64,000 bases of DNA from a virus: IMG/VR virus record IMGVR_UViG_3300027816_000057; one strand, 5' to 3'. The notes beneath the pieces are model-generated. The model was not told where the DNA came from and did not search any database. It was given only the letters and a program-made list of their open reading frames with translations. Below, one piece after another: positions 18 through 54,524 of this stretch (position 1 is its first letter; the number at the start of each line of letters is the position of its first letter). The translations under genes and the position numbers were made by a program.

Positions 18-221
18 ATGTGTAGAGGTTTAGGACATTTAGAGCCTTTTATTTTTTACGGCGTAAAAGCACAGTCTTATTGTACGCTGTGTAACGGAAG
101 CGGAGAATATAAAGAACAGACAACGCTTGTTCAACAAGAAAATGATAAAGTATCTAGTATTAAATTAAGTTCTTGGAACTCGCTAAGAATGAATGTTATT
201 GAACCGCCGGACTTAGTATAA
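18..221 (+). CDS. DnaJ-type zinc-ribbon small protein (may begin before the window)
   Basis: CRGLG and CTLCNGSG motifs; the stop codon lies inside tRNA-Trp. Confidence 0.5.
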   Translation: MCRGLGHLEPFIFYGVKAQSYCTLCNGSGEYKEQTTLVQQENDKVSSIKLSSWNSLRMNVIEPPDLV

Positions 222-277
222 TGGTAGTATAATTGATTCCAAATCAATAGGTGTAGGTTCGATTCCTCCAGTCCGGA
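207..277 (+). tRNA. tRNA-Trp(CCA), no encoded CCA end
   Basis: Acceptor CCGGACT/AGTCCGG; anticodon arm ATTGA-TTCCAAA-TCAAT; T-loop TTCGATT. Confidence 0.85.
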
Positions 278-279
278 TT

Positions 280-522
280 ATGAAAATTATTCAACTTTAT
301 GACATAGGAAAAGAAGACAGAGCTACTACCGCGTTATATATAGATTCACAATTAGTTATGTTTGGTGATTACTATCATGATAAAATACATTATAAAATTG
401 CTGGATTTACTATAGCTTTAAAATACATGAAAGTAGAATTTTCATTTAAAGAATATAAATACGAAGAAGAATCTGAAGACGGTATTCCTCCAGATGTTTT
501 ACCGGAAAAATATAATAAATAA
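280..522 (+). CDS. hypothetical protein
   Basis: ORF; ATG 2 nt after the tRNA-Trp discriminator. Confidence 0.7.
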   Translation: MKIIQLYDIGKEDRATTALYIDSQLVMFGDYYHDKIHYKIAGFTIALKYMKVEFSFKEYKYEEESEDGIPPDVLPEKYNK

Positions 523-523
523 T

Positions 524-811
524 ATGCCAAAATTCATAGAAAAACCTAAACAAGTAATTGCTCATCAATGGTTTCCGCCGGGACATGAAAAGCATGATCC
601 TTCTATATTAAGTGAATACGGATATGAAGTAGGAAAAGTATATACGTCGTGGTCTGATTTATATTGCGTTGATCTCGGTGAGGGGGAGACTGAAATTTTA
701 CCGGGATATTGGATTGTAGAGTCATACGACTATTATGAAGGTATAAATCGTTATGTTCTTTTAAGAGACGCTCAATTTAAAGAAATGTATGAACGGGTTA
801 CGGAAAAATGA
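524..811 (+). CDS. hypothetical phage protein
   Basis: ORF; start refined to MPKFIEKPK. Confidence 0.65.
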   Translation: MPKFIEKPKQVIAHQWFPPGHEKHDPSILSEYGYEVGKVYTSWSDLYCVDLGEGETEILPGYWIVESYDYYEGINRYVLLRDAQFKEMYERVTEK

Positions 812-1284
812 ATAAAGAAAAACTAAAAAACCGAGACGACGTTGTAAGAGATACTTTTAATCATATTAAAAGAGTTGGTACATTATTAATGGAGATAGTT
901 ACGGATTTACAAAAAAGAGCTATTAACCACGATACATCTAAATTTTCTGAATCAGAATTTCCTTACTTTGCCGAGGAAACCCCAAAGCTAAAGAATCTTG
1001 TATATGATTCTGACGAATATAAACAGTCCATAAAAAATCTTGGACCTGCATTAGAACATCATTATTCTTGGAACGATCATCATCCAGAGTATCATAAAAA
1101 TGGTATTAAGGATATGAATTTAATTCAATTACTAGAACTATTATCTGATTGGCGGGCGGCTAGCGAAAGACATGCGGGAGGAAGTTTAAATTCATCTATT
1201 GATAAAAACGCGGCACGCTTTGGATATGATGATAATATGATTAATCTGCTTAAAAATACCGCTAAGTATTTGGGGTGGATTTAG
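808..1284 (+). CDS. HD-like metal-binding protein (DUF5662-like)
   Basis: HDTSKF, HHYSWNDHHPE and DWRAASER motifs. Confidence 0.7.
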   Translation: MNKEKLKNRDDVVRDTFNHIKRVGTLLMEIVTDLQKRAINHDTSKFSESEFPYFAEETPKLKNLVYDSDEYKQSIKNLGPALEHHYSWNDHHPEYHKNGIKDMNLIQLLELLSDWRAASERHAGGSLNSSIDKNAARFGYDDNMINLLKNTAKYLGWI

Positions 1285-1292
1285 GATAACAA

Positions 1293-1523
1293 ATGGCAGA
1301 AATTAAACAACGTCTTATGGATATATCCGCTAACTGTAGAGCAAAAGGAATGACTCATGCAGAAAACGCAATACTTGACGGTTTAGATTATATTAGACTT
1401 TTAGAATTAATAATAATCCGTACAGACGCATTAAATAAAATTAAAGATGAATCATCGGAAGATATATTAACTCTTCCCCATCTTTGTAAATTAATTAAAG
1501 GATATAATGAAAAAGCCAAATGA
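1293..1523 (+). CDS. hypothetical protein
   Basis: ORF in a tight operon, AGGA SD. Confidence 0.6.
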   Translation: MAEIKQRLMDISANCRAKGMTHAENAILDGLDYIRLLELIIIRTDALNKIKDESSEDILTLPHLCKLIKGYNEKAK

Positions 1524-1875
1524 AGTAGATATTAATAAAAATAAAAACGAGATTCTACGATATAGATTAAATAATATAGAATATGATTTTAATTATCGTC
1601 TTAAGGAGATTTTAAAATATCCATTTGAATATTCTATCGCTCATCATAGAGATGGTACAGACTTACCAGTTATCTCTTTATTTTTAGAAAGACTAAAAGA
1701 AAACGGATGGTTCGCAAAAGAACTACGTTCATCTTATATCACTATTCTCCTAATCTCTGATAAAGAGAGTGATATCTTAGAAACTGAAACAGATAAAAAA
1801 CCAAAACCTGCTAAAAAATCATTTGTCGAAAAATGTATGGAATATTGTTTTGGACCGCACCATCATGGTTATTAA
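1507..1875 (+). CDS. hypothetical protein
   Basis: ORF overlapping the previous stop. Confidence 0.6.
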   Translation: MKKPNEVDINKNKNEILRYRLNNIEYDFNYRLKEILKYPFEYSIAHHRDGTDLPVISLFLERLKENGWFAKELRSSYITILLISDKESDILETETDKKPKPAKKSFVEKCMEYCFGPHHHGY

Positions 1876-1922
1876 CGGGAATTATTTCACCGGGGCGGTG
1901 AAACTGAGGTAAGGAGTAAATA

Positions 1923-2180
1923 ATGGCGACCGGCGACTGGTACATAGACTCACTACGAAAATCCGGTAAGAGTGAAAGTACTTATAATTTAATTGAAACA
2001 ATTCGACAAATGAATGAGTATATTATTCGCCTTGAAGTAGAGAATAAAGCTTTACGAAAGGCGTGCGAAAAAATTAGAAACGAGTGGACATCAAAGCATA
2101 TTGCAAAGACCGCTTTGGATTTTGCGGTTGTAGAAGCTATTTTAGCTCTTGGTGATTTTCCTAGTCGCGATCGCCTATAG
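1923..2180 (+). CDS. hypothetical coiled-coil protein
   Basis: TAAGGAG SD; ORF. Confidence 0.65.
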   Translation: MATGDWYIDSLRKSGKSESTYNLIETIRQMNEYIIRLEVENKALRKACEKIRNEWTSKHIAKTALDFAVVEAILALGDFPSRDRL

Positions 2181-2203
2181 AGAAACTTCATTAAGTGCCA
2201 GAT

Positions 2204-2289
2204 TTGTCACGATTCTTGTCGCGATTCATTTTTTACAACAGTTATAGGACTATAATTGCGACACTTTGTCGCGATTTCTGTCGCGATTC
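2204..2289. repeat. two tandem pairs of a 12-mer, consensus TTGTCGCGATTC
   Basis: Copies at 2204, 2216, 2266 and 2278 flanking TATAAT at 2251. Confidence 0.75.
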
Positions 2290-2319
2290 GATTTGGGAAA
2301 ATATGAAAGAAAGTTTAAT

Positions 2320-2697
2320 ATGAAATTGATCGTTGGTAAAAAATATTATTTTCAAACGGATAGTGGCCCTCCGTCTGGTAATTTACACAGCGGAATTCTC
2401 TCTGATTTTAGAAAGCTGACGAGGGGAGAAATAAATCGTTTTAAATTACCCATATACGAAACCTGTTTGCCGGGCGATATTATAATGAAATGGAAAAATA
2501 TAAAAGGTTTATTAGACAAAACCGATCCAGATATAGAAGCAAACGAGTGGTGTCACGAAGAGGACTTAATTATTTATAAATCTTTGAGTCACGCCAAGAA
2601 TAAATTAAAAAAAGAATATAAACGAGAAATAAAAGAAGCTAAGGAAGATATTGATAAACGAATTATATTATTAGACAAACTTAATTCCATAATATAG
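2320..2697 (+). CDS. hypothetical protein
   Basis: Start refined to MKLIVGKK. Confidence 0.6.
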   Translation: MKLIVGKKYYFQTDSGPPSGNLHSGILSDFRKLTRGEINRFKLPIYETCLPGDIIMKWKNIKGLLDKTDPDIEANEWCHEEDLIIYKSLSHAKNKLKKEYKREIKEAKEDIDKRIILLDKLNSII

Positions 2698-2814
2698 TTT
2701 ATTTCTATAAGTCCTCTTTTGCTTGATCCGACCCAACCCCAAAAGCCCTTTAAACCGCCCCTAATAAATTTTTAAAGTCAAACGGTGGCGTGCACGTTTT
2801 AGAGGCAAACATTT

Positions 2815-3027
2815 ATGGTAGACAAATGTAGTCAATGTCAGGGGACGGGTTGTAATCGTTCTTTGCCTCCAATGACAAAATATATGTGGCGAGCTTGTTC
2901 TAAATGTGACGGGTCGGGATTTTTACCGATATTATCAGGATGGGTTCCGGGTAAAACGTCGGCTATATATCAAAGACAAAAAGACGGATCAATTATTTGG
3001 GCGGGTAAAATCAAGGTTTATGTTTAA
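2815..3027 (+). CDS. DnaJ-type zinc-ribbon small protein
   Basis: CSQCQGTG and CSKCDGSG. Confidence 0.65.
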   Translation: MVDKCSQCQGTGCNRSLPPMTKYMWRACSKCDGSGFLPILSGWVPGKTSAIYQRQKDGSIIWAGKIKVYV

Positions 3028-3570
3028 ATTGTTCTGTAATTAAGTCCTCTAATTTTTATCGCTATCAACCTTATTTTAAAAAATACATAGAGTAAAAGAT
3101 AGAGATAGAGAGATAGTAGTTTAAGTACTCTAATTTTATAGGAGGGGTTAATGTGCGTATCAGCATCCCACCCCCGGTTTCGCACCCCGAAAGGCATTAC
3201 CGATCCACCCAACAATACCCGTACACCCTACCGAATAGTTCGTAAGTGTAGTAGTAGCAAGGGTTTACAGATTTTTTCGTCGATTCGTTCCGTTTTCTTG
3301 TTTCTTTCCTTGCATCGTTCCGATATATCGGGTAGACTTGTGTATCGGGTTGGGATTGACAAGTGAATATCAAGGAAAGGATTCGGATGCGATCCAATCG
3401 GGTACGCTCTAGAATCTTTCCGGTATACGTTTGGGCGGGTTTTCACCTTCAACCAAACGATATACAAACAACAAACGACTATCGACGTATAGGTAGAAAT
3501 ACCTATATGTCTGTTCCGAGTTTGTACCCTTCTCGATTCTAAGGGTACGGTAGTCTGTTAGGAGATTGTT

Positions 3571-4194
3571 ATGCTTCTTGAATCCTTCATCGCGTCGTTT
3601 GGTAAGAAGTCGGGATTTGATCGGGTTGTGGCCGATGCTAGTCGTCGGGCTTGTGTTCGTGCTAACATTATGCGTTCGTCGCCGATTTCGGACGAATGTC
3701 TGGAAGAAGTTATTGCTGATTGTTCGGCTGACGTTCGGCTCCGCATCGTTGAACGTTTCGACTATGATTCATCCAAGGGTTCGGGTTCTACTTGGGTCAA
3801 TGCTATCGCATGGTTTATCGGTTCGAATCTTGTTCGGGATGCGGTCGGGGAGTCAGCCTCTACCGTCCGGAATGTCCATTCCGATTCAGAATGCCGTCCG
3901 GGACAAGCTTGGGACCGATTGATTCACGATCACGGTATCAAGGATACCCGATCGGGCACCGATCCGGACATGGCGGATCGTCAGATCGATACGATCTCGG
4001 ATTCCGTCCGAGACAATCCGAGAATGTCCGAGTTTGTTCGGATCGCTCGCGAAGAGTACACCAAAGACTCTAGTGCAGGCGTCAAGGGTAGAATTGCGGA
4101 GCGTTTGGGGGTTTCCAACGCCCAAGTCAGCCACTATCTGAACGGATTGGCTGAAATGATTGATTCGACTACGCTTGCCGAATCGGTAGCGTAA
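3571..4194 (+). CDS. sigma-70 family RNA polymerase sigma factor-like protein
   Basis: Region-2-like ERFDYDSSKGSGSTWV; C-terminal HTH IAERLGVSNAQVSHYL; TAGGAG SD. Confidence 0.7.
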   Translation: MLLESFIASFGKKSGFDRVVADASRRACVRANIMRSSPISDECLEEVIADCSADVRLRIVERFDYDSSKGSGSTWVNAIAWFIGSNLVRDAVGESASTVRNVHSDSECRPGQAWDRLIHDHGIKDTRSGTDPDMADRQIDTISDSVRDNPRMSEFVRIAREEYTKDSSAGVKGRIAERLGVSNAQVSHYLNGLAEMIDSTTLAESVA

Positions 4195-4277
4195 ACAAAT
4201 AGGATAGGCTAACCGAAGGGTTAGTCTAGCCTTTCCCGTAGTTTGCAATAGGGTAGACTATGGTAGGAGTTTGGATT

Positions 4278-4634
4278 ATGAAGGATCGTTATACTAACGT
4301 CGATACCATTATCTCGGATTCCGAAACCTATAACGGTTTCAAGTATTCTGACAAGAAAGTGAAGTTTGTTAAGTCGCGATTCTTGGGGGCATCCCAAGAA
4401 GAATGTATGGATTCGGTTTATCGTCGGCTGATTCTTTCCGTACCGATCGGTGAAACCGATAAGTCTATCCGGTCAATCGGGCGAACATTAGGGTTTGTTG
4501 TGGATGGTCGCTCGTGTCGGCATGAACATGATTGTTGCGGGTGCTATTTCGGCGGACCCGCTACCATTGTCCGGAATCGTGCGGGTGATAAGGATATCGT
4601 TATCCTTGAAGAAGGTTTTTCTCGGAATGTCTAG
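4278..4634 (+). CDS. hypothetical protein with CxHxHDCCGC motif
   Basis: TAGGAG SD; start refined to MKDRY. Confidence 0.65.
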   Translation: MKDRYTNVDTIISDSETYNGFKYSDKKVKFVKSRFLGASQEECMDSVYRRLILSVPIGETDKSIRSIGRTLGFVVDGRSCRHEHDCCGCYFGGPATIVRNRAGDKDIVILEEGFSRNV

Positions 4635-4715
4635 TCTTTTCGCTATTCTTGTCCGAAGGGACGGGAATAGTTTTCAACCCCGATACAATAGGGTGTCGGC
4701 TTAGGAGTTTGTGCC

Positions 4716-4964
4716 ATGCGGGTTATTCACGTCGCGTATTATAAGGACGGACACTACGGTTTGTGGTCCGATATGAAGGTATCCATTTCCGATAATGGGG
4801 AATACCGAACCAAGTCGGCACCCGATGAAGTCTATCCTGATTTGCATCAGGCTATCCTAGTCGCCGAAGGCTACGATTCCCCTGAATGTCCGGTTATCGT
4901 CGAATTGTCCGACCCTTGCCAGATTCTTGCGTTTGGACTCGATCTTTCCGATATCAAGGAGTGA
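4716..4964 (+). CDS. hypothetical protein
   Basis: TAGGAG SD; GATACAAT upstream. Confidence 0.65.
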   Translation: MRVIHVAYYKDGHYGLWSDMKVSISDNGEYRTKSAPDEVYPDLHQAILVAEGYDSPECPVIVELSDPCQILAFGLDLSDIKE

Positions 4965-4968
4965 TGCG

Positions 4969-5121: not shown

Positions 5122-5130
5122 CAAATACCT

Positions 5131-5157: not shown

Positions 5158-5166
5158 CGTTTCTAT

Positions 5167-5310: not shown

Positions 5311-5324
5311 ATTTGCCCAACAAC

Positions 5325-5351: not shown

Positions 5352-5356
5352 AAAGC

Positions 5357-6001: not shown

Positions 6002-6029
6002 GAACTTTCTTTGTAAGATATAATAACGT

Positions 6030-6186
6030 AATGGTGGTTTCAAGGTTTAGACCATAATCGGGGACGTAGCTGCTCTACCGACAAAAACCGAAAAAAGATA
6101 GGACACAATAGGGTTCGATTCCCGTGCTGGTAGCTGAGTGTTCTATAACTTTTCGGGTGCCGCGTTCCCTGCGGTGCCCGTTTTTT
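6030..6186 (+). ncRNA. candidate small RNA
   Basis: GATATAAT at 6017; only an 8-codon ORF; GGGTTCGATTCCC T-loop-like hairpin; strong terminator at 6154-6186. Confidence 0.45.
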
Positions 6187-6407
6187 ATTTAGTCCTCATT
6201 CTTACAAATTTTAAGCAATAATAGAAAATAGTTTTTCGTAGTCAGTGGATTAAATAATACGGGCGGCAAGATATAATATAGTGACTATGGCGTGATATAA
6301 TCTATTTAACTTATTTTGTAAAATATATTTTTATTGTTGCAATGAATTAAAAAGAAACCCCGTGAGGATATAATAGAGAGTACCCAACCTCAACTCGAAA
6401 GGTTATC

Positions 6408-7425: not shown

Positions 7426-7602
7426 ATGGAAAAGATCAAAACTCAAGAAGAAATTATCCAAGAAGGATATCAGGCTTTCGTGGATGCTTTGAATATTGAT
7501 GATTGTCCGTATAAAACTAATGAAAATATGTCGGCTTGGAAAAAGGGTTATACCGAAGCCGAAAATGATTATTTCGATGCTTTGGACCAAGATTACGCTT
7601 AA
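7426..7602 (+). CDS. RMF/CrpP-fold-like 58-aa protein (not in ORF track)
   Basis: EGYQAF-x7-CPY-x7-AWKKGYTEA matches the RMF pattern GYQA...CPY...W..G; GATATAAT-N5-ATG. Confidence 0.6.
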   Translation: MEKIKTQEEIIQEGYQAFVDALNIDDCPYKTNENMSAWKKGYTEAENDYFDALDQDYA

Positions 7603-12775: not shown

Positions 12776-12847
12776 TTTGCTGTCGTCTAATGGTCGGACG
12801 CCGTAGCGGAACCTACGGAAATGTAAGTTCGAATCTTACCGGCAACA
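12776..12847 (+). tRNA. tRNA-like RNA with aberrant anticodon arm (identity undetermined)
   Basis: Gln-like D arm GTCTAATGGTCGGAC; canonical T arm GTAAG-TTCGAAT-CTTAC; anticodon arm CCGTAG-CGGAAC-CTACGG. Confidence 0.65.
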
Positions 12848-12867: not shown

Positions 12868-13134
12868 ATGAAGATTTCTGCATCAGAGGTTAATCAGAAT
12901 AACGGTTTTTCGTGGACGGACGCCACTGTACGTGGAGGCAGTTATGTTTTCTTTCGTACTATAATGAACGAAAAGGTTCTTTCCATTGGACATTTTGAAA
13001 AAGGGGTTCGGGCGTGGTTTATCAGTCAGAATGAACCGTCCTACGGTATCGGTCTTGTTAGTGCTAACGATTCATCCTACCGCGATCTTCGCTTCTTCCC
13101 GATTCAGGAAATGAATGTTACTTATAGTAAATAA
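12868..13134 (+). CDS. small beta-rich paralog family member
   Basis: MKISA...LRFFPIQEMNV; AAAGGA SD; terminator at 13161-13190. Confidence 0.7.
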   Translation: MKISASEVNQNNGFSWTDATVRGGSYVFFRTIMNEKVLSIGHFEKGVRAWFISQNEPSYGIGLVSANDSSYRDLRFFPIQEMNVTYSK

Positions 13135-14232: not shown

Positions 14233-14259
14233 TATAATTGCTATCGCAAATAAAATAGA

Positions 14260-14332
14260 GCGTCTGTAACTCAGTTGGCAGAGTAGAGGACTTTTAATCC
14301 TTTTGTCGTAGGTTCGATCCCTACCAGACGCA
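14260..14332 (+). tRNA. tRNA-Lys(TTT)
   Basis: GCGTCTG/CAGACGC; anticodon loop CTTTTAA; canonical arms. Confidence 0.95.
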
Positions 14333-14334: not shown

Positions 14335-14583
14335 ATGATTAAAATTAACAGACCGAGACTTCGTATGTTTGTTCCTTTTGATGAAGCAATTGGCAGAGAT
14401 GCTTACGTTTTTCTAGAGTGTGAAAAATATCCTTCCAATGTTTATCTCTGGAATGCAGGTAATCGAATTTTAATTGAATTTGGACACGGCGTTGCTGCTA
14501 TGAACGAAATTCAGTCTATTCCTTATCGTGAATTAAATTACCGAAAAATTGAGCGTCCAGAAATTGTTATCAATTGTAAGTAA
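14335..14583 (+). CDS. small beta-rich paralog family member
   Basis: ATG 2 nt after tRNA-Lys. Confidence 0.7.
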   Translation: MIKINRPRLRMFVPFDEAIGRDAYVFLECEKYPSNVYLWNAGNRILIEFGHGVAAMNEIQSIPYRELNYRKIERPEIVINCK

Positions 14584-16701: not shown

Positions 16702-17202
16702 ATGAACCAACTCTCTATTAATATTTATCCAGCTCCATCGGTCCAGCCGGTTTATGAGTCTCTTGATTATACTAGTAAGCGTGGTATTTATAAAATTGAG
16801 GGTGATGCTGAATATCCTTATTATGTTTTTCTAGGTAACTCTACTTATCATGTCGCACAGCGTAATAATCTGCACCATTCTCAGAATATGGAAGGTCTGA
16901 ATAAGGGAGGTTTTAAATATACCTTTATTACCGATGAATATTCGGTGAAGGATAATAAAATCTCGTTTGAGATTCCCCAAAGTAAACCGCTAAATTTGAA
17001 AGATAATCCCCCAAGTCCGGGAACGATGATTCAGGTAAACATAAGTGGTGATTACAATACTGATATTTTTATTGTTCCTAATTTTAAAACCGACCATCCT
17101 GCAGTAGTTCGTGGTAATAGAATTGTTTATTCTGTTTGTACGTTCGAAGAGTGGATGAGTGCAGCATATGAATATCGAATTGTTGGTAAAAATTCCAATT
17201 AA
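16702..17202 (+). CDS. two-domain member of the small paralog family
   Basis: GIYK...YTF domain plus PGTMIQV...YRIVGK domain; leaderless. Confidence 0.7.
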   Translation: MNQLSINIYPAPSVQPVYESLDYTSKRGIYKIEGDAEYPYYVFLGNSTYHVAQRNNLHHSQNMEGLNKGGFKYTFITDEYSVKDNKISFEIPQSKPLNLKDNPPSPGTMIQVNISGDYNTDIFIVPNFKTDHPAVVRGNRIVYSVCTFEEWMSAAYEYRIVGKNSN

Positions 17203-19947: not shown

Positions 19948-20020
19948 GGACATATATGCTAATTGGATAGGCAAGCTCCCTTTCAAGGAGTTGGTCCGGG
20001 TTCGAGTCCCGGTATGTTCA
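19948..20020 (+). tRNA. tRNA-Glu(TTC)
   Basis: GGACATA/TATGTTC; anticodon loop CTTTCAA; T arm CCGGG-TTCGAGT-CCCGG. Confidence 0.9.
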
Positions 20021-20022: not shown

Positions 20023-20265
20023 ATGAAAATTAAAATTAAAAAAATTATTGATCGTGATATCAACGACTTAACTTTTAAACAAGCTATTAAGAAAGATGGT
20101 GTTTATTATATTCGAGGATACCACAATGAAAGATTGATTGTTTTAAACGGTCAAGCTATTAATTGGAGGATTTTTGACGTGTGTGTAGACGGCAAGCATT
20201 TAAATTCTGTCTCATATTCTTTTTTCCCATCGGAAGAAAAAATAGAAATGATATTTGACGAATGA
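20023..20265 (+). CDS. small beta-rich paralog family member
   Basis: MKIKI...DGVYY...YSFFP; ATG 2 nt after tRNA-Glu. Confidence 0.7.
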   Translation: MKIKIKKIIDRDINDLTFKQAIKKDGVYYIRGYHNERLIVLNGQAINWRIFDVCVDGKHLNSVSYSFFPSEEKIEMIFDE

Positions 20266-21041: not shown

Positions 21042-21073
21042 AAAATACGCAAGGTTGATATAATAGAATGTAC

Positions 21074-21146
21074 CGGCTTATAGCTCAGTGGTTAGAGCAA
21101 TCCCCTTATAAGGGATAGGTCGATGGTTCGAGTCCATCTAGGCCGA
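21074..21146 (+). tRNA. tRNA-Ile(TAT)
   Basis: CGGCTTA/TAGGCCG; anticodon arm ATCCC-CTTATAA-GGGAT; own promoter at 21057. Confidence 0.9.
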
Positions 21147-21148: not shown

Positions 21149-21337
21149 ATGAAATCCAATATTTTAAATATTTTGCTTGTCGCCGCGTATTCTGTGATTG
21201 TAACGGGCCTTATTGTTTTCTCTGGATTTTCTGTGCTTTCGACACCTATCTATATTTGTTGTTTAATTCTATTTTTTATTCTAGGTTACAATTTTGACAC
21301 TTTGTTTTGGAATCCTTTGTGTAGCTTGACCAAATAA
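21149..21337 (+). CDS. small membrane protein
   Basis: Two hydrophobic segments; ATG 2 nt after tRNA-Ile. Confidence 0.65.
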   Translation: MKSNILNILLVAAYSVIVTGLIVFSGFSVLSTPIYICCLILFFILGYNFDTLFWNPLCSLTK

Positions 21338-21964: not shown

Positions 21965-21997
21965 AATATTGAATTGAGATGATATAATATATTATAA

Positions 21998-22071
21998 GAC
22001 TCCGTAGCTTAGCTGGATAGAGCGGTCGGTTTCTACCCGACAGGTCGGGGGTTCGAATCCCTCCGGGGTTG
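21998..22071 (+). tRNA. tRNA-Arg(TCT)
   Basis: GACTCCG/CGGGGTT; anticodon arm GTCGG-TTTCTAC-CCGAC. Confidence 0.92.
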
Positions 22072-22078: not shown

Positions 22079-22384
22079 ATGGATATTTCCTTTCACCTTT
22101 TTCAAACATGGATTGAATCATTACCAGATGATACGGTCTTTGATTATGGTAGCCCCGTATTTTCTTTAGAAGCTCGTTTTCTGGCTTCATTAGTCGGAAA
22201 GAATATGAGTGTTTATATTCCTCCGATTGGTAGGGGGCTGGTTCATTCTGGTCATGTAGATATTGTCTGGCCTGACGATCATTGGTTTTCTCAATTGGCC
22301 CGTTTTTCATACGGTAATAGAGTTAAGACTTTAGCACAGGCTAAGGGTTTTTTAGGATTTGCTGCTAGAAAGGATATTAGATAA
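22079..22384 (+). CDS. hypothetical protein
   Basis: ORF 7 nt after tRNA-Arg. Confidence 0.6.
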   Translation: MDISFHLFQTWIESLPDDTVFDYGSPVFSLEARFLASLVGKNMSVYIPPIGRGLVHSGHVDIVWPDDHWFSQLARFSYGNRVKTLAQAKGFLGFAARKDIR

Positions 22385-23817: not shown

Positions 23818-23904
23818 CCCCGTGTGGTGAAATTGGCAAACACTGCGGACTTAAAATCCGCCGCCGTTAATAGCGGCTTGTCGGTTCGACTCCGACCACG
23901 GGGA
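23818..23904 (+). tRNA. tRNA-Leu(TAA)
   Basis: CCCCGTG/CACGGGG; anticodon loop CTTAAAA; long variable arm. Confidence 0.95.
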
Positions 23905-23921: not shown

Positions 23922-24167
23922 ATGGATCGTCTAGCTAATATTGGATGTGTCGGTATTTTGTTTGTCTATGGTGTTTATTTTACAGTCGTAGGAGCTTTGA
24001 TTAGTCTTCTAGCTTTTTGGACGCAGAATAATCTTGCTTTTTGGGTAAGTCATTCTAAGGGTACTCCAACAGACGTTCCTTATTGGCTAGCTTGGGTAGC
24101 TTCAATTCCAGTACCGTTTACTTTTATTGCTAATATTGTTTCACAAATTGCTCGTTTGTTTGTATAG
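23922..24167 (+). CDS. small membrane protein
   Basis: Hydrophobic; AAAGGA SD. Confidence 0.65.
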   Translation: MDRLANIGCVGILFVYGVYFTVVGALISLLAFWTQNNLAFWVSHSKGTPTDVPYWLAWVASIPVPFTFIANIVSQIARLFV

Positions 24168-24271: not shown

Positions 24272-24393
24272 AACACAGATGCCTAATAATAGGCGGTTAA
24301 AACTATCTTGCGGTTTTCTCCCGTAAGCTAAGGCACCTTTCCCTGTTGATAGTTACCCGAACGGAAATCTTGGTGAAAAACCAAGCTGTGTTT
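24272..24393 (+). ncRNA. tRNA-mimic RNA (acceptor stem plus T-arm geometry)
   Basis: AACACAG/CTGTGTT 7 bp; adjacent CTTGG-TGAAAAA-CCAAG arm; followed by TT-ATG. Confidence 0.55.
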
Positions 24394-24395: not shown

Positions 24396-24638
24396 ATGAA
24401 TATTGAAATTAAAGAAAAACAACTTCTACCATATCGTCCTTTTAACGATATTTCTTATCGCTATAATCAATGGTTTTACTATTCAAAGTGCGGTAAAGAA
24501 GATCACGGTCTTTGTTATGTTACAGAAAAAGGTGTTTTTTCTGTTGATGTTCTAGGAATTAGTTTGATTAACGATAGAACATGGCAAGATTTTAAATTTC
24601 GTTCTTTTAATGGTGAGATTACTATTAAGGTGAATTAA
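24396..24638 (+). CDS. small beta-rich paralog family member
   Basis: MNIEI...FRSFNGEITI. Confidence 0.7.
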   Translation: MNIEIKEKQLLPYRPFNDISYRYNQWFYYSKCGKEDHGLCYVTEKGVFSVDVLGISLINDRTWQDFKFRSFNGEITIKVN

Positions 24639-30915: not shown

Positions 30916-30988
30916 TGCGGGAGGCTAGGCCGGGTGGTCTGGTGAGTCTCATAAACTTGCAACTTGGGTTCGAGTCCCAATCCCGCTA
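30916..30988 (+). tRNA. tRNA-Met/Ile2(CAT)
   Basis: GCGGGA/TCCCGC; anticodon loop CTCATAA; T arm TTGGG-TTCGAGT-CCCAA; atypical D arm. Confidence 0.8.
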
Positions 30989-30990: not shown

Positions 30991-31269
30991 ATGGATATTA
31001 ATGTAAAAATAGAACCAAGTGAAGGTGTAAAAAAATATTCTTTTGAAGATATTCTTAAAGAACCCGGTATTTACCAACAAATAGTTTTTGCAGGATCTGC
31101 TGGAATTTTTATTAATGCTGGCAACTGCATATATTATACTGATAGCTGTAAAAACAAATTTTACTCTATTGATGGCAGAAGCTATATGAAAGAGATTTGG
31201 GATAAACCGGATATATTTTTTGAGAAATTAAATTCAAAAACACTCACGGTCACTTTTAAATTCGATTAA
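30991..31269 (+). CDS. small beta-rich paralog family member
   Basis: MDINV...PGIY...FFEKL; ATG 2 nt after the tRNA. Confidence 0.7.
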   Translation: MDINVKIEPSEGVKKYSFEDILKEPGIYQQIVFAGSAGIFINAGNCIYYTDSCKNKFYSIDGRSYMKEIWDKPDIFFEKLNSKTLTVTFKFD

Positions 31270-32316: not shown

Positions 32317-32588
32317 ACCGATAGTCTAGATAGAAATATCTAGACTATTTTTATGCAATATCCAACTCTAGATGAAGTAAACAATGCTTCTCATGAACAA
32401 ATTTGTAGATTGTATAGATTTTTACCAACCCCAGCGTTTTATTCGCAAGAATCTTTCGATATACTAACTAGAGTTTGCGAAAGGCTTAAAGAATTTGGTG
32501 GTTTTACTCCCGAAATTTCTAAGAAAATTGGATTTCAATTATGAATTGATAATTGCCTTAAAAAATTACAATCTTAGATATAATATTT

Positions 32589-42107: not shown

Positions 42108-42602
42108 ATGGAAACTTCTAAGAAAACATATCGGAATAAAAGCGAAGAGAATTTCTTTGGGGTTTTGATTGAAAACCCAAAAGTTCCGCAAAATTCATCT
42201 ATCGTTTTTAGAACGGCGGTAGGTTTAGGAAATGTAGATTTTATCGGAACCGTTGGCACTAAATATCACGACTGTCATTCAAATGTAGTTAAAGCACAAA
42301 GAATTCTACCGTGCTGGAATTTTCCTGATTTTAAGACATTTCATGGACAACTACCTATGAATTGTGTTATTGTTGGTGCTGAAATTGATGAACGATCGGT
42401 ACCTATTGAAAATTTTGTATGGCCGGATCGATGTGTTCTTTTGCTTGGAAATGAAAAAGATGGTCTATCTAAAGAAGCTCGTAGCGGTTGTCATAAACTA
42501 GTTAAACTTCCAAATCCTAGAGAGTTGTCTTTTAATTTAGCTATGGCAGGTTCTATGCTTATGTATGATCGATATTGTAAACGTATTAAAGCGGGGTTGT
42601 AG
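42108..42602 (+). CDS. TrmH/SpoU family RNA 2'-O-methyltransferase
   Basis: PQN...RTA, LLLGNEKDGL and SFNLAMAG SPOUT motifs. Confidence 0.85.
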   Translation: METSKKTYRNKSEENFFGVLIENPKVPQNSSIVFRTAVGLGNVDFIGTVGTKYHDCHSNVVKAQRILPCWNFPDFKTFHGQLPMNCVIVGAEIDERSVPIENFVWPDRCVLLLGNEKDGLSKEARSGCHKLVKLPNPRELSFNLAMAGSMLMYDRYCKRIKAGL

Positions 42603-42664
42603 CTCATCGGTAGAGCGGAAAACTGTTAATTTTCTGGTAGTAGGTTCAATTCCTACCTACCCCT
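42593..42664 (+). tRNA. tRNA-Asn(GTT)
   Basis: GGGGTTG/CTACCCC; anticodon arm GAAAA-CTGTTAA-TTTTC. Confidence 0.88.
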
Positions 42665-42668
42665 TTAG

Positions 42669-42757
42669 GCGGGATGTTCCATGAATCCGACTGTAAATCG
42701 GATGAGTGTTATATATTCATGGTGGATGCTCGGAAAGTTCAATTCTTTCATCCCGCA
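42669..42757 (+). tRNA. non-canonical tRNA-Tyr(GTA)-like RNA lacking a D arm
   Basis: GCGGGAT/ATCCCGC; TCCGA-CTGTAAA-TCGGA; T arm GAAAG-TTCAATT-CTTTC; about 30-nt variable region. Confidence 0.7.
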
Positions 42758-46487: not shown

Positions 46488-47154
46488 ATACACTGAATGT
46501 TATCTAGGCGAATGCTTTGATTCTATGTTGATAGAAAAATTAGTTAAAGTTATATTAGATAACGGATATAAAGGAATAAGTCTTAGTCCATCAATTATAG
46601 ATATTGTTGGCGAATATACAAATTATCCAAATCTATATCTAAATCTAGATCATCCTTTTTCTTTTCATACGTCAGATATACGATTATTAGTACTAAAAGA
46701 ATATATTAAAAAATATAGCGAACTGATCAAAGGTATTAATTTAAGTCCGGTTTACTCGTTTTTAAATAATTGGTCAATTGAAAAAATAAGAGAAGATTTT
46801 GACATTATAGCAAAAATTTGTAATAAATCTAAAATAGAAACAAGAATGTTTTTAGATATAAGTTATTACTCAAATGATGTTATTTATAGAATAAGTGATC
46901 TAGCTAATCAGTCTGGAATAAACAGAGTAGTATTAGGATGTTTCAATAAAAAATATTTTAATCTACAAGATACTTTAATTCATATAGATAAGATCAAAAA
47001 GTTCTCTAATATTAAAACAGGTATATTTGGAGCGTTTGATTTAGATGAAACAAATGATTATAAGTACTTTTCAGAGTCAAATTTAAAGACAGGTAACGAC
47101 ATAATTTTTTTAAAACCTAAAAAAATATTATCAAATTTTAACGATAGTGTATAA
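46477..47154 (+). CDS. degenerate DeoC-like TIM-barrel protein
   Basis: Overall pattern (DHPF, IRED) resembles the aldolase fold; catalytic motifs unclear. Confidence 0.4.
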   Translation: MINKYTECYLGECFDSMLIEKLVKVILDNGYKGISLSPSIIDIVGEYTNYPNLYLNLDHPFSFHTSDIRLLVLKEYIKKYSELIKGINLSPVYSFLNNWSIEKIREDFDIIAKICNKSKIETRMFLDISYYSNDVIYRISDLANQSGINRVVLGCFNKKYFNLQDTLIHIDKIKKFSNIKTGIFGAFDLDETNDYKYFSESNLKTGNDIIFLKPKKILSNFNDSV

Positions 47155-49803: not shown

Positions 49804-50235
49804 ATGAATAAAATAAAAATTAAATTAAATCATGCGGACGCGGTAATACCAGTAAAAGCTAACGAGGATGACGCCGGATATGATTTATTTGCAGCAACCG
49901 ATCCAGTATTTAATGGTCAATATTTAGAATATGATACCGGAATTTCTATCGAGCCTCCTTCGGGTTATTATACCGAAGTTGTTCCAAGAAGTAGTATTTC
50001 TAAATATGATCTATTACTATGTAATAGCGTTGGCATAATTGATCCATCGTATAGAGGTAATATTAAACTTCGATTTAAAGTTACTCAGCCTTATGAAAAC
50101 GCTCTAATATACAAAAAGGGTGATAGAATAGGTCAATTAATTCTTAGATCATTGTTGACAAGCGAGTTTGAGTTAGTATCTGATTTAACTGAAACATCAA
50201 GAGGAAGCGGCGGATTTGGATCAACTGGAAGATAA
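49804..50235 (+). CDS. dut: dUTPase
   Basis: AGYDL, PRSS, GIID..YRG and RGSGGFGSTG. Confidence 0.95.
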   Translation: MNKIKIKLNHADAVIPVKANEDDAGYDLFAATDPVFNGQYLEYDTGISIEPPSGYYTEVVPRSSISKYDLLLCNSVGIIDPSYRGNIKLRFKVTQPYENALIYKKGDRIGQLILRSLLTSEFELVSDLTETSRGSGGFGSTGR

Positions 50236-50236
50236 T

Positions 50237-50638
50237 ATGCTTATTTCTTTAAAAGAAACAAAAGAAGTTCAAAAAACAATTAGTCATGTAACTATTCAAT
50301 ATCAATCTAGATATGATGATACCGCACCCGCCTACAAGGAAGATGCGATTGTTACTTTAAAAATTTCCCCTCATGGAAAAATTTTACAATCATCGTATCC
50401 AATTGAAGATGAAGTAAATATATTTGAAAAAGTTGTAGATTGCGGAACATACAGTATTAATTTTGGCAAATACGATTCTTTTATTATTGAGAATAATTAT
50501 GTACCATCTTGGATTCCCGGAAAATATGGTGATTATATTAATTTAGAAATTAAAAATGGTGTAATTACTAATTGGCTGCGATATTTTACAGAACAACATA
50601 TTAGAGAATCGTATGAGTCTCAAAACAATGATTTTTAA
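50237..50638 (+). CDS. hypothetical protein
   Basis: YVP..IPG.YGDYI.L.I motif. Confidence 0.65.
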   Translation: MLISLKETKEVQKTISHVTIQYQSRYDDTAPAYKEDAIVTLKISPHGKILQSSYPIEDEVNIFEKVVDCGTYSINFGKYDSFIIENNYVPSWIPGKYGDYINLEIKNGVITNWLRYFTEQHIRESYESQNNDF

Positions 50639-51329
50639 TAGTATATTATTTTGGTCTTTATTTATAAGCGGATGCAATTTACATCCGCCGGTTGAAGATA
50701 ATGGTAATATTAAATATTTTTTTATTGATGTAACAGTTGAAAGAACAGAACATGAAGTATATCAAATTCCTTTTAAAGAACCTTTTAATGTAAGATTATC
50801 AAAAAAAGAAGAAGATTTTATTGCTTGGATAGCTAAAGTAAATGACAAATTTGAAGATTCTGGAATACAATTTTATTTAAGAAATTTTAAAGAGATTCCG
50901 CCTCAAAAAATTGAAAATAAAAACTTTTTTTTGATGTTAAAAGAATATGGATTAAATAACGAAGCTATTCAGATTTATTATTATTGCAACCCATCAGTTT
51001 TAGCTGGTATATCATCGTTTCCTTGGGAAAAAAATAATAATTTTATTTATTTAACTTGGCAACACAATGATTCAGATAACAGCTATACTCTGTCACATGA
51101 ATTAGGTCATTACTTTGGAATAAGACATATATTTGATCCTAAAAATGATATACCCGATGTTCGGTTTTATGAAAAAAATGATCCCGCTGGTTTTGATTAT
51201 CCAAATATAATGAATTATACATTATATAATATTGATTATCTAAGTTTTACCGCAGGACAACTTGAAAGAATACGATACAACGCCTTGTTTTATCGAAAGG
51301 ATATGATAGCGTTTGAAATCGATCCATGA
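50628..51329 (+). CDS. metzincin (M43-like) zinc metalloprotease, lipoprotein-like
   Basis: HELGHYFGIRH; NIMNY Met-turn; ISGC lipobox-like. Confidence 0.8.
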   Translation: MIFNSILFWSLFISGCNLHPPVEDNGNIKYFFIDVTVERTEHEVYQIPFKEPFNVRLSKKEEDFIAWIAKVNDKFEDSGIQFYLRNFKEIPPQKIENKNFFLMLKEYGLNNEAIQIYYYCNPSVLAGISSFPWEKNNNFIYLTWQHNDSDNSYTLSHELGHYFGIRHIFDPKNDIPDVRFYEKNDPAGFDYPNIMNYTLYNIDYLSFTAGQLERIRYNALFYRKDMIAFEIDP

Positions 51330-51816
51330 TTATGAATCTATCGGAATTTTTTCCGATAATAGATTTGTCGCAAAAAATGAAAGATTATCGTGGGATGAGT
51401 ATTTTCTTAATATCGCTTTTCTTGTTGCGGAAAGATCGCACGATTCACAAACAAAACACGGCTGCGTTTTTGTAAAAAATAATCAAATAATAAGTACCGG
51501 TTATAATGGTTTTCCCGGTGGTTCACCCGATGACATTATACCAAATGTAAGACCATATAAATATGATTTTATACATCACGCAGAAGATAATGCTATTTTT
51601 CAAGCAGCTAAATTAGGATTAACTTTAGATGGTTGTGTAGCATATATTACCGGTATGCCGTGTTGCAGATGTTTACCTAAATTAATTAGTGTTGGTATTA
51701 AAAAAATACACATTGGCGATAGAATACATCAACAAACCGAAAAAGATAAATTGTTGCAAGATTTTTGGATTTCTCAGTTTAAATTGGAGATAATAAAAAA
51801 TGGAATTAACCGATAA
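51313..51816 (+). CDS. dCMP deaminase
   Basis: WDEYFL, TGYNG, HAEDNA and PCCRC. Confidence 0.92.
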   Translation: MKSIHDYESIGIFSDNRFVAKNERLSWDEYFLNIAFLVAERSHDSQTKHGCVFVKNNQIISTGYNGFPGGSPDDIIPNVRPYKYDFIHHAEDNAIFQAAKLGLTLDGCVAYITGMPCCRCLPKLISVGIKKIHIGDRIHQQTEKDKLLQDFWISQFKLEIIKNGINR

Positions 51817-53173
51817 TATACTTTTACAGTCAGATAGTTATAAATATTCAATGCATAATCAGTACCCTTCGGGCACTGAATATGTTTATGAATATATGGA
51901 AAGTCGGAAAAACTCGGAATATCCCGATACGGTATTTTTTGGACTTCAATATTATTTAATGAGATATTTAAGTAAACCTGTTACCAAAAAAGAGGTTGAA
52001 TACGCTAGAGATTTTTTCGCACAACACTTCGGTAAAGAGGTATTTAATTATGACGGTTGGATGTATATTGTAGAAAAACACGGCGGATATCTACCTGTTA
52101 CTATTCGATCGGTTGACGAAGGATCGGTTATTCCAATTGACAATGTTCTAATGACGATAGAAAATACCGACCCTAATTGTTTTTGGCTAACTACCTTTCT
52201 AGAGACATTGCTTCTTAAAGTTTGGTATCCTTCAACCGTCGCCACCATTAGTTATTTCAATAAACAAGAGATTCTTAATAATCTAATAGCAACCGGAGAT
52301 CCTTCTTTAATTGATTTTAAGCTGCATGATTTTGGATTCCGAGGAGTTTCATCCTGTGAATCAGCCGCCCTTGGTGGTGCCGGGCATCTAATAAACTTTA
52401 AAGGAACCGATACGGTATTGGCTCTAGAATTAATACGTCAATATTACGACATTGATATGGTCGGTTTTTCTATTCCGGCTATGGAACATTCTACTGTTAC
52501 ATCTTGGGGAGAGAAAAATGAGTCCGCTGCATACGCTAATATGTTGAATAAATATCCAGACGGATTAGTAGCTTGTGTTAGCGATAGTTATGATATCTTT
52601 AACGCTTGCGAAAATATCTTTGGCGAAGAATTAAAAGATTTAGTTGTCAACAGAAAAGGATGTTTGGTCATTAGACCAGATTCTGGTGAACCTACATTAG
52701 TTTTGATGAAGATTCTTCCTAAATTAGAGGCTAAATTTGGCTCTACAATAAATAGTAAAGGATACAAGGTATTACCTCCTTATGTTAGGATTATTTGGGG
52801 CGACGGTATTGATTCTAAGTCTATCCCTTTTATTTTACGAAATCTGAAAGATTTAGGATGGTCCGGCGATAATCTAGCTTTTGGTTCTGGAGGCGGATTA
52901 TTGCAAAAACTAAATAGAGATACACAATCATTTGCTATTAAGTGTTCATCTATTACTGTATTAGGTAATCAAATTAATGTATATAAAAATCCAGTTACTC
53001 AATCTTCTAAACAAAGCAAGAGAGGTAGACTAGATTTAGATTTAATCGCGGGTAAATATATTACCGTGCCAGAAGGTACAGCTATTAATAGTCAGCTAAA
53101 AACTCGATTCCATAATGGAAAACTATTTAATTTAATTTCGTTTAACCAAATAAGGAAAAACGCGAGCAAATGA
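51800..53173 (+). CDS. nadV: nicotinamide phosphoribosyltransferase
   Basis: DSYK, HDFGFRG, EHS, VSDSYD, RPDSG and GSGGGLLQ. Confidence 0.95.
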   Translation: MELTDNILLQSDSYKYSMHNQYPSGTEYVYEYMESRKNSEYPDTVFFGLQYYLMRYLSKPVTKKEVEYARDFFAQHFGKEVFNYDGWMYIVEKHGGYLPVTIRSVDEGSVIPIDNVLMTIENTDPNCFWLTTFLETLLLKVWYPSTVATISYFNKQEILNNLIATGDPSLIDFKLHDFGFRGVSSCESAALGGAGHLINFKGTDTVLALELIRQYYDIDMVGFSIPAMEHSTVTSWGEKNESAAYANMLNKYPDGLVACVSDSYDIFNACENIFGEELKDLVVNRKGCLVIRPDSGEPTLVLMKILPKLEAKFGSTINSKGYKVLPPYVRIIWGDGIDSKSIPFILRNLKDLGWSGDNLAFGSGGGLLQKLNRDTQSFAIKCSSITVLGNQINVYKNPVTQSSKQSKRGRLDLDLIAGKYITVPEGTAINSQLKTRFHNGKLFNLISFNQIRKNASK

Positions 53174-53811
53174 TCCACTTTACTTGTTGCACTCATTTTT
53201 TTGATGATAGACTAGAGTTACTAGGTAGACCATTTTCTTCAGTAGAGGAAATGAACAGTCATATCGTTGAAAACTGGAATAAAAAAGTTAAACCAGATGA
53301 TGAGGTTTACCATCTTGGGGACGCTATAAAATTTGATAGATTTGATATTGAAGATGATGCGAATGGTTATCCTCTAAAAATATCGGATGAAAATTTAGAA
53401 AAAATTTCTATATTAGGTCGTTTGAATGGTAAAAAACACCTTATATTAGGAAATTATGATCCGTCTTTAGATAAAACCAATTTTTATTTTCAAGAATATT
53501 CAAAATACTTTCTATCGATTTCTAATAACTTCTCATTAGATGTTAACGAACGAGATTTAACCTTTAAGTTATTTTTAACTCATAAACCGATTCATGCGGT
53601 AAAAGACAGATTTAATATCGTCGGACATATTCATGGTGCTTGGAAAATACAACGTAATATGTTAAATGTTTGTCAAGACGCACATCATTATTATCCGGTA
53701 TCTTTTGACAAAATATTATTTTATTATCAAGGTATATCAAAAGGATACTTTGATGAAAATGTTTTTTGTCAAGAATCAGCAGCAAACAAAACAACCGCCC
53801 GAATTATCTAA
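53170..53811 (+). CDS. calcineurin-like phosphoesterase
   Basis: THF, HLGD, LGNYD and GHIH. Confidence 0.8.
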   Translation: MIHFTCCTHFFDDRLELLGRPFSSVEEMNSHIVENWNKKVKPDDEVYHLGDAIKFDRFDIEDDANGYPLKISDENLEKISILGRLNGKKHLILGNYDPSLDKTNFYFQEYSKYFLSISNNFSLDVNERDLTFKLFLTHKPIHAVKDRFNIVGHIHGAWKIQRNMLNVCQDAHHYYPVSFDKILFYYQGISKGYFDENVFCQESAANKTTARII

Positions 53812-53839
53812 AATTTTTGAAAAACAGGATATAATAATT

Positions 53840-54097
53840 ATGAAAATTACAGTAAAAGAATCATCAGAACAAATATTTAATTTTACTTTAAATGATATTA
53901 AAAAATGTGATGGAATTTATCAAGCAAGATGGAGAGATGATTCTTATCAAGAAGTGTGTTATGTTTTAGTTATAAATTCTACTCCTTATACATGCTGTAA
54001 TGCAGAAACTTTTGGATTTAATCAGAATACTATTTTTTCTAATCCAAACTATAGATTTAGAAAATTAGATAACGCGGAAGTAACGCTTAAATTTTAA
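53840..54097 (+). CDS. small beta-rich paralog family member (leaderless)
   Basis: MKITV...DGIY...YRFRKL. Confidence 0.7.
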   Translation: MKITVKESSEQIFNFTLNDIKKCDGIYQARWRDDSYQEVCYVLVINSTPYTCCNAETFGFNQNTIFSNPNYRFRKLDNAEVTLKF

Positions 54098-54102
54098 TTT
54101 AT

Positions 54103-54177
54103 TGGGTTTTGGTGTCATTCGGCTTAGCACTTCTGGTTGTGATCCAGAGAGACAGGGTTCGATGCCCTGAAACCCTA
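54103..54177 (+). tRNA. tRNA-His(GTG)
   Basis: GGGTTT/AAACCC; anticodon arm TCTGG-TTGTGAT-CCAGA; T arm CAGGG-TTCGATG-CCCTG. Confidence 0.85.
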
Positions 54178-54179
54178 TT

Positions 54180-54524
54180 ATGAAAAAGAAATATAAAGAT
54201 GCTTGGATCAAAGCTTTACGTTCTGGACGCTATAAACAATGCCGCGAGCAATTACGCGACGGAGAGGGATACTGTTGTTTGGGTGTTTTAGCAAGAATTA
54301 ACGGATCATCTAAAAAAGATTTGGAAAGTCAAGCATCTGATTTAGATGATGGAGTCTGTATTACAGATTTAAACCTAAGTATTATACTTCATGGACAACT
54401 TTCTGATTCTTTCTTAAAGAAGGTTGGTATAAAAACAACTGAACAATCACGATTGATTAAATTAAATGATGATCTTAGTTACGATTTTATTGGTATCGCA
54501 GATTATATAGAAGATAATTTATAA
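54180..54524 (+). CDS. hypothetical protein (WxKALRSG family)
   Basis: Tandem paralog of 54533; ATG 2 nt after tRNA-His. Confidence 0.75.
   Translation: MKKKYKDAWIKALRSGRYKQCREQLRDGEGYCCLGVLARINGSSKKDLESQASDLDDGVCITDLNLSIILHGQLSDSFLKKVGIKTTEQSRLIKLNDDLSYDFIGIADYIEDNL

Follow-up and report, generated by a model that had tools for sequence, protein, structure and literature searches.

The stretch of DNA analyzed here (the window) comprises 64,000 nucleotides (nt) of IMG/VR virus record IMGVR_UViG_3300027816_000057. It is a fragment of the genome of a large uncultured phage, has a G+C content of 34%, and carries nearly all of its genes on the plus strand. tRNA genes are scattered among the protein-coding genes of this phage, and several of them directly abut the start codon of the next open reading frame (ORF). 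tRNAs were called with ARAGORN and the Rfam tRNA model, and the survey was performed within the window. ARAGORN detected 10 tRNAs, all on the plus strand, and none of these (0/10) had an encoded CCA end, as had been claimed in an earlier, sequence-only reading of this DNA. That reading had also described six dispersed tRNAs that end with a discriminator A and are followed by TT and then by the ATG of an ORF, and the Rfam ends matched the claimed position in every case. For tRNA-Trp(CCA) (207 to 277), A73 is at position 277 and TT is followed at position 280 by the ATG of an 80-codon ORF (280 to 522). The same A73-TT-ATG layout was observed for tRNA-Lys(UUU) (14260 to 14332) and an 82-codon ORF (14335 to 14583), for tRNA-Glu(UUC) (19948 to 20020) and an 80-codon ORF (20023 to 20265), for tRNA-Ile(UAU) (21074 to 21146) and a 62-codon ORF (21149 to 21337), for tRNA-Met(CAU) (30916 to 30988) and a 92-codon ORF (30991 to 31269), and for tRNA-His(GUG) (54103 to 54177) and a 114-codon ORF (54180 to 54524), with A73 at 14332, 20020, 21146, 30988, and 54177, respectively. 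All of these features are on the plus strand. The 2-nt spacer present in all six cases leaves no room for a Shine-Dalgarno (SD) sequence before the flush ATG, again as had been proposed.

The ARAGORN and Rfam models both fit the flush tRNAs, indicating an intact acceptor stem and T arm, with tRNA-Met (27.2 bits) being slightly below the 29-bit Rfam cut-off and tRNA-His scoring 39.7 bits. ARAGORN placed the ends of the Glu, Met, and His tRNAs 1 nt later than Rfam because an alternative register is possible; the positions given above are in the Rfam register. Positions 74 to 76 were TTA in 8 of the 10 tRNAs, and U74 was present in 9 of the 10. The probability of at least 6 of 10 tRNAs having an ATG at a fixed offset by chance was 1e-8, and values of 4e-14 and 3e-17 were obtained for TTATG and for TTATG opening at least 60 codons, respectively. 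Chance was therefore excluded as the origin of these junctions. In tRNA-His (54103 to 54177, plus strand), a U1.U72 mismatch was present in the Rfam alignment and G-1 was absent. An apparent U1.U72 mismatch could also be read from the sequence of tRNA-Met (30916 to 30988, plus strand), for which Rfam aligns the 5' strand differently; this Met sequence is conserved in a relative, L027 (see below).

A seventh junction of this type was detected behind a structured element at 24272 to 24393 (plus strand), which has a 7-bp closing stem and a 6-bp hairpin that runs into the 3' strand (minimum free energy [MFE], -34.3 kcal/mol; z, -3.07). This tRNA mimic is not a cloverleaf; its hairpin-to-stem layout is that of the T arm to the acceptor stem, as in a minihelix. 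It is followed by U, UU, and AUG, with the ATG at 24396 opening an 80-codon ORF (24396 to 24638, plus strand) that was supported by a public gene call and by codon usage. UU was present at all seven flush junctions. The looser case recognized in the sequence-only reading, tRNA-Arg(UCU) (21998 to 22071, plus strand), also stood: this tRNA has its own GATATAAT promoter (TATAAT at 21983 to 21988) and a G73, and a U-rich 7-nt spacer (TTTTATT) without an SD separates it from a 101-codon ORF (22079 to 22384, plus strand) supported by the same two types of evidence.

Spacers were tallied for the thirteen tRNA or tRNA-like elements in the window. Seven elements had a spacer of 2 nt to the next ATG, and tRNA-Arg had the 7-nt spacer just described. 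tRNA-Thr(UGU) (56518 to 56600, plus strand) had a spacer of 19 nt. The spacers of tRNA-Leu(UAA) (23818 to 23904, plus strand; ATG at 23922), of a tRNA-like body at 12776 to 12847 (plus strand; ATG at 12868), and of a Tyr-like element were 17, 20, and 32 nt, respectively, and contained AAAGGA or GGAG, the motif being AAAGGA in the first two of these contrast cases. For tRNA-Asn, the next element is the Tyr-like element and no gene lies directly behind it. Overall, the distribution was bimodal, with spacers of 2 to 7 nt without an SD or of 17 to 32 nt with an SD in three of four cases, and none of 8 to 16 nt.

The ORFs at the flush junctions are real genes. Codon-usage log-odds for these ORFs in frame 0 ranged from 0.27 to 0.45 (0.45 for the Trp ORF) relative to a training mean of 0.33, and the other two frames gave negative values; the Ile ORF had the weakest coding signal (0.05). 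An independent public gene call placed starts at 22079, 24396, and 30991. In alignments with orthologues or homologues, the match began at residue 1 in four cases: the Met ORF (compared with its orthologue in L027, starting at M1), members of the His ORF family, the gene adjacent to tRNA-Arg in L027, and the RNA ligase gene considered below. Every member of the His ORF family, which includes an SD-led paralogue at 54533 to 54853 in the window, begins with M-x-K-x-(I/V)-K-x-K-W. The first 30 nt of the flush ORFs were essentially unstructured (median MFE, 0.0 kcal/mol) and had a G+C content of 21%.

A second type of SD-less start was apparent when the upstream 22 nt of every ORF were listed. Dozens of genes were located behind GATATAAT, five nucleotides, and an ATG, without an SD. 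Among ORFs of at least 45 codons, TATAAT-N5-ATG occurred 27 times on the plus strand, with 0 to 3 occurrences at each other spacing and 2 on the minus strand. The consensus was tTAAAAA-N15-GATATAAT-A-nnn-T-ATG, with an A-rich block at about -35 and a conserved T at -1. Inclusion of about 8 variants (N4 or N6 spacing, TAGAAT or TACAAT), one form of which was GTGTATAAT at 47150 and 61397, gave about 35 such genes between 5346 and 62321 on the plus strand, a very large regulon for a low-GC phage. As the -10 box is five bases from the ATG, the usable transcription start would be the A of the ATG or one to two bases before it, and hence these genes should be leaderless. The T at -1 fits the known preference of transcription initiation for a pyrimidine at -1 and a purine at +1. 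Most of the remaining genes had AAGGA or GGAG at a normal spacing, indicating that the absence of an SD is specific to the tRNA-flush genes and suggesting that this phage uses both SD-led and leaderless modes of initiation. The same GATATAAT promoter was present 9 to 11 nt before tRNA-Ile (TATAAT at 21059 to 21064, 9 nt upstream), tRNA-Arg, and tRNA-Leu and 21 nt before tRNA-Lys (TATAAT at 14233 to 14238). In these promoter-tRNA units, the tRNA fills the exact place between a leaderless-type promoter and the ATG.

Some copies of this promoter were not followed by a gene. One precedes about 170 nt without an ORF (6019 to 6200, plus strand) that contain a T-arm-like sequence, GGGTTCGATTCCC; this RNA may be tRNA-like or transfer-messenger RNA-like and was not called by ARAGORN or Rfam. 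Six further GATATAAT promoters, at 6272, 8598, 9541, 10466, 13223, and 16614 (plus strand), had ATA(n)TGAC and AT-rich sequence in place of the ATG, and these may produce short noncoding transcripts or act as decoy promoters.

The start regions of the same genes were then compared in related contigs. In L027, a Logan contig that shares with the window a DUF932 protein at 84% identity, tRNA-Met and the junction CCCGCTATTATG are retained base for base, but another gene, of 64 codons, follows them. The window homologue of this L027 gene (22386 to 22604) is SD-led, and the orthologue of the window Met-flush gene is the next gene in L027, where it has a GGAG SD. Hence, the junction has been conserved across replacement of the downstream gene. 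In L027, tRNA-Arg is followed after 3 nt (CTT) by a gene of 181 codons. The orthologue of this gene in the window, with an alignment beginning at MIY, is not preceded by a tRNA and starts in an ATGA overlap with the preceding gene. In two other relatives, G002 and G004 (RNA ligase 81% identical), the ligase ATG is 5 nt (TTTAT) past tRNA-Thr, and the window ligase starts behind GATAGAAT-N6. The same genes were thus found to alternate among four kinds of start, tRNA-flush, promoter-leaderless, SD-led, and overlap-coupled, and a tRNA-flush start was never combined with an SD. In our view this alternation is the strongest indirect argument that the 3' end of the tRNA would do the job of a leaderless promoter.

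In G002, tRNA-His (L012, 150 to 235) is truncated, and the gene that follows it has an SD of its own. What is left of this tRNA is the 3' half, the 5' acceptor strand and the D arm being deleted, with two compensatory pair changes in the remaining T stem. An explanation of this locus as decay of tRNA-His accompanied by gain of an SD was considered and rejected, as the gene present in G002 is orthologous to the SD-led paralogue at 54533 and G002 lacks the flush paralogue at 54180. A more distant contig of 125 kb, G001 (about 40% identity), had neither leaderless promoters nor flush genes. A TTAG-ATG past two of its tRNAs was rejected as a flush start because it belongs to a repeated trailer and not to an ORF. 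In the same contig (44435 to 45388; L009 to L011), two tRNA genes contain long insertions (116 to 120 nt in total), and the trailer TTAGATGATTCAGCAATT is common to two tRNAs.

The occurrence of flush genes in other large phages was examined by scanning IMG/VR with the pattern T-arm-N10-ATTATG, and matches were obtained in at least 118 contigs. Among the matches listed, an ORF of at least 50 codons was opened by 49 of 92 pattern-selected junctions, compared to a TTATG baseline of 23% (P, 6e-10). In the pattern-positive contigs among these matches, tRNAs that had not been selected by the pattern had a spacer of 5 nt or less in 28/439 cases versus 7/565 in an unbiased sample (P, 1.4e-5), and a second spacer mode with an SD was present at about 14 to 21 nt. 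Flush tRNAs accounted for 5/7 of the tRNAs in L076 (from a 373-kb contig), 3/11 in L086, 3/10 in L080, and 3/4 in L126. On the basis of shared proteins, the pattern-positive contigs could be divided into at least three to four groups. The closest cultured relative of one group is the T4-like Flavobacterium phage immuto, to which the relationship is distant and in which no tRNA was annotated before the corresponding gene. The unbiased sample consisted of 565 viral tRNAs chosen by a D-arm pattern, and the 7 short spacers (about 1%) were rarer than at random positions (85/2320), which indicates that flush genes are normally avoided. This rarity, together with the excess in the selected contigs, indicated that the arrangement is not general to phage tRNAs but is recurrent in certain lineages. 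A related geometry was observed in L216 (IMG/VR contig 2928716645_000002), where two CCA-encoding tRNAs (Cys and Gln) are each followed by an ORF whose ATG begins with the last A of the CCA end (CC-ATG). The start codon is in the same position-76 geometry as in the TT-ATG junctions of the window.

We propose that excision of the tRNA yields a near-leaderless, translatable mRNA for the next gene, a reading that we judge to be probable on balance. The tRNA and the following gene would be cotranscribed, with the Ile, Arg, and Leu tRNAs being expressed from their own GATATAAT promoters with a leader of a few nucleotides, tRNA-Lys having a leader of about 16 nt, and the Trp, Glu, Met, and His tRNAs lying within operons. 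A putative host RNase Z-type enzyme would then make an endonucleolytic cut right after the discriminator; a cut at this site is the most likely one because no tRNA encodes CCA and UU comes next. This single cut would release a tRNA to which CCA is still to be added, together with an mRNA beginning with 5'-P-UUAUG. Lacking an SD and having an unstructured, A/U-rich start, this mRNA would be translated by 5'-end-dependent (leaderless-type) initiation, the same mode as is predicted for the approximately 35 genes whose promoters would put the transcription start on the A of the ATG.

Several properties of the putative components are consistent with this proposal. Cleavage by the metallo-beta-lactamase mechanism yields a trailer with a phosphate at its 5' end, and the RNase Z of B. 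subtilis is reported, in work by Pellegrini et al. from 2003 and 2012, to be stimulated by a U after the discriminator. RNase Z cuts CCA-less precursors immediately past the discriminator, and mapped products from Streptococcus have an A end and a U start (PMC8549757). Leaderless initiation requires an unstructured start (PMC8459731). All that sequence and comparison can test agreed with the earlier interpretation, namely, CCA-less tRNAs with U74 and U75, the lack of room for an SD, real ORFs, a large leaderless regulon, a junction kept in relatives even where the downstream gene has been exchanged, and single genes that switch between a tRNA-flush start without an SD and an SD-led or promoter-leaderless start; the interpretation of the tRNAs as processing signals was thereby partly supported. 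Its corollary, that punctuation of this kind is the reason for the scattering of the tRNAs, is plausible.

Other observations weigh against this proposal. Five tRNA or tRNA-like elements in the window are not flush to a gene (the four with spacers of 17 to 32 nt, three of these with an SD, and tRNA-Asn), indicating that flush placement is not obligatory and that punctuation in this phage would be an option rather than a rule. Upstream ORFs extend into tRNA-Trp and tRNA-Asn at the 5' end, so that processing would cut off the stop codons of those ORFs and processing and translation can conflict. The comparative evidence comes from two or three relatives only. With Caulobacter reporters, each extra 5' nucleotide approximately halved leaderless initiation, with 2 nt giving about 0.24, and in E. 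coli even one extra 5' nucleotide was inhibitory (PMC8459731). A 5'-UUAUG end would hence be suboptimal unless the cut is made after U75 or the end is trimmed. The UU may represent a compromise between the needs of the nuclease and those of the ribosome. Alternatively, the actual cut may be after U75, since the A of the AUG corresponds to tRNA position 76.

This coincidence with position 76 is also the starting point of the alternative that survives best, an either/or switch in which the flush layout is a competition device and not a way to make both products. The trailer would be cut and trimmed back, by RNase E plus exonucleases or by an exonucleolytic RNase BN, and the start codon would be destroyed, so that each transcript gives either the tRNA or the protein. 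RNase E prefers A/U-rich single-stranded RNA, and the trailer UUAUGAAA is of this type. The ORFs overlapping tRNA 5' ends also indicate that this genome tolerates conflicts of processing with translation. We nevertheless consider a switch unlikely, as it does not account for translation of the uncut RNA, in which a folded tRNA would be situated 2 nt before an SD-less AUG, or for the presence of an SD, a leaderless promoter, or a stop/start overlap in the same genes when these are not flush.

A history of compaction or insertion without function, in which tRNAs were squeezed in beside existing starts, the downstream genes are translated poorly or by an unrelated route, and TT-ATG is a by-product, seems to us quite improbable. 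The tRNAs do move, since their positions differ between relatives (tRNA-Arg is at about 22 kb in the window and before the 27.5-kb orthologue in L027), and a LAGLIDADG endonuclease gene is located near the L027 Met locus. However, this genome is not generally compact, gaps of 30 to 230 nt being common, and such a history would not lead one to expect a spacer of exactly 2 nt in seven cases or a junction that survives replacement of the downstream gene. The low frequency of short spacers behind viral tRNAs (7/565 versus 85/2320 random positions), which indicates that flush placement is normally avoided, argues in the same direction.

Translation of an unprocessed transcript, with the tRNA fold stabilizing the message or recruiting ribosomes and no cleavage taking place, is very unlikely. 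Structured 5' elements can stabilize bacterial mRNAs, and nothing specific to these loci was found in favor of such an effect. From ribosome geometry, a 30S or 70S ribosome would need single-stranded RNA upstream of the P-site codon, and a folded 73-nt tRNA at -3 would leave no room for it at a start that also has no SD; furthermore, tRNA precursors are processed efficiently in all bacteria. Finally, the idea that the ORFs are not genes and that ATTATG is a conserved trailer or processing motif draws on the TTA that follows the discriminator of 8/10 tRNAs, some of them without a flush ORF, and on the weak coding score of the Ile ORF, but it is scarcely credible and was largely refuted by the ORFs of 62 to 114 codons behind all six tRNA junctions (P, about 1e-12), the frame-specific codon usage, the independent gene calls, and the homologues aligned from residue 1.

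Excision of the tRNA as the source of the mRNA 5' end has its closest parallel in mitochondrial tRNA punctuation, reportedly described by Ojala, Montoya, and Attardi in 1981. In both systems, tRNAs abut coding sequences, and excision by RNase P and RNase Z frees (in the phage, would free) mRNAs with no leader or a very short one for translation without an SD. The 2-nt spacers of the six tRNAs and the mimic are within the 0 to 3 nt of the mitochondrial type. In the mitochondrial type, tRNAs flank the majority of genes in a polycistronic transcript, whereas punctuation in the window is limited to 7 of roughly 150 ORFs, and most genes have their own promoter or an SD. The phage also differs in being a bacterial virus that would rely on host enzymes, in keeping a fixed UU spacer, in having many tRNAs with their own promoters, and in apparently making leaderless mRNAs by promoter placement as well. 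In an archaeal system, a tRNA-shaped element beside another RNA is removed by tRNA-processing enzymes to leave a defined end, and the mimic at 24272 to 24393 resembles such an element. The archaeal elements are nondecoding, whereas 6/7 of the elements here are genuine decoding tRNAs. The CCA-less tRNAs of phage T4 are matured by RNase BN/RNase Z plus the CCA-adding enzyme, and so both phages have tRNA genes without CCA that depend, or in this phage would depend, on a host RNase Z-family enzyme. Unlike the tRNAs of the window, those of T4 form a cluster, and they are not reported to adjoin start codons or to give rise to mRNAs.

Leaderless mRNAs are known for lambda cI and in mycobacteria, and the proposal that the toxin MazF generates such mRNAs in E. 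coli is disputed. Leaderless mRNAs and regulons are also known from Deinococcus deserti and Caulobacter (PMC8459731). All of these messages resemble those predicted here in that the AUG is located at the 5' end or close to it, the start is unstructured and lacks an SD, and a -10 box precedes the start codon at a fixed short distance. They differ in that their ends come from transcription initiation, whereas the tRNA-flush ends would come from processing and would carry a 5' phosphate and two extra U residues. For MazF, an endonucleolytic cut just upstream of the AUG was proposed to turn leadered RNA into leaderless RNA (PMC5001579). The likeness is a cut near the AUG that makes a leaderless mRNA, and the difference is that MazF is a stress toxin that cuts at ACA in conjunction with ribosome remodelling, as opposed to housekeeping tRNA maturation in a phage.

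Our searches of the literature gave no account of tRNA-flush leaderless genes in phages. No leaderless transcripts were reported for phiKZ, and the 5' untranslated regions of AR9 are 26 to 491 nt. If the proposal is correct, phage tRNA genes would, besides supplying tRNAs, direct RNA processing, generating the 5' ends of mRNAs and taking the place of ribosome-binding sites. This would supply a new reason for the scattering of phage tRNAs among small genes, a bacterial counterpart of mitochondrial punctuation, and a compact design rule, tRNA-UU-AUG, by which one transcript could give both a tRNA and a protein. Such starts would be missed or misplaced by gene finders that depend on an SD. A broader version, which we regard as tentative and rather doubtful, is that tRNA excision is a general and undescribed route to leaderless mRNAs in large phages that ties gene output to tRNA maturation. 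In this phage, it would be one arm of an SD-independent program comprising the approximately 35 promoter-leaderless genes, the tRNA-flush genes, the mimic, and possibly a protein resembling ribosome modulation factor (RMF), encoded at 7426 to 7602, that shifts ribosomes off SD-led host messages.

The other genes of the window encode a clamp loader, NAMPT, two RNA ligases, ThyX, a dCMP deaminase, a metallophosphatase, a cytidylyltransferase-like protein, an AAA_33-type kinase, an RlaP-type nucleotidyltransferase, and a SpoU methylase. An RNase Z gene was not detected among 40 window proteins scanned. Metagenome contigs from many samples, up to 163 kb in length, carried identical copies of window proteins, and no DNA relative of the window was found among GenBank phages. 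A scan of metagenome contigs for relatives gave a single distant match, an IMG/VR scan with an early-region protein alignment gave none, and word-indexed searches detected no relatives of the early protein encoded at 16702 to 17202 or of the RMF-like protein. The latter is the product of a 58-codon early leaderless ORF (7426 to 7602, plus strand) that matched Pfam RMF above the curated cut-off (E, 1.5e-8; 35 bits) and also E. coli RMF in the PDB (E, 1e-3). This protein could be a member of a wider Rmf/CrpP-like group, and an effect of it in biasing translation is speculative.

An RNA repair set is present in the same genome as the CCA-less tRNAs, with the two RNA ligases, the AAA_33 kinase, the metallophosphatase, and the RlaP-type nucleotidyltransferase being encoded between 33530 and 63167 on the plus strand. 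In the region of the SpoU/TrmH-like methylase gene (42108 to 42757, plus strand), the 3' end of the gene is within tRNA-Asn. The stop codon is at 42600 to 42602 and the tRNA starts at 42593, and RNase P cleavage would consequently remove the methylase stop codon. The Tyr-like tRNA, which lacks a D arm, begins 4 nt past tRNA-Asn, and the order of methylase, Asn, and Tyr-like element is kept in the relative G003 (L022). A further junction without a tRNA was located at 32317 to 32355 (plus strand), where a perfect 10-bp hairpin followed by ATTTTT, a terminator-like arrangement, extends right up to the ATG of a 63-codon ORF. The corresponding place in L027 (7083 to 7121) is occupied by another hairpin, different from this one but identical in layout.

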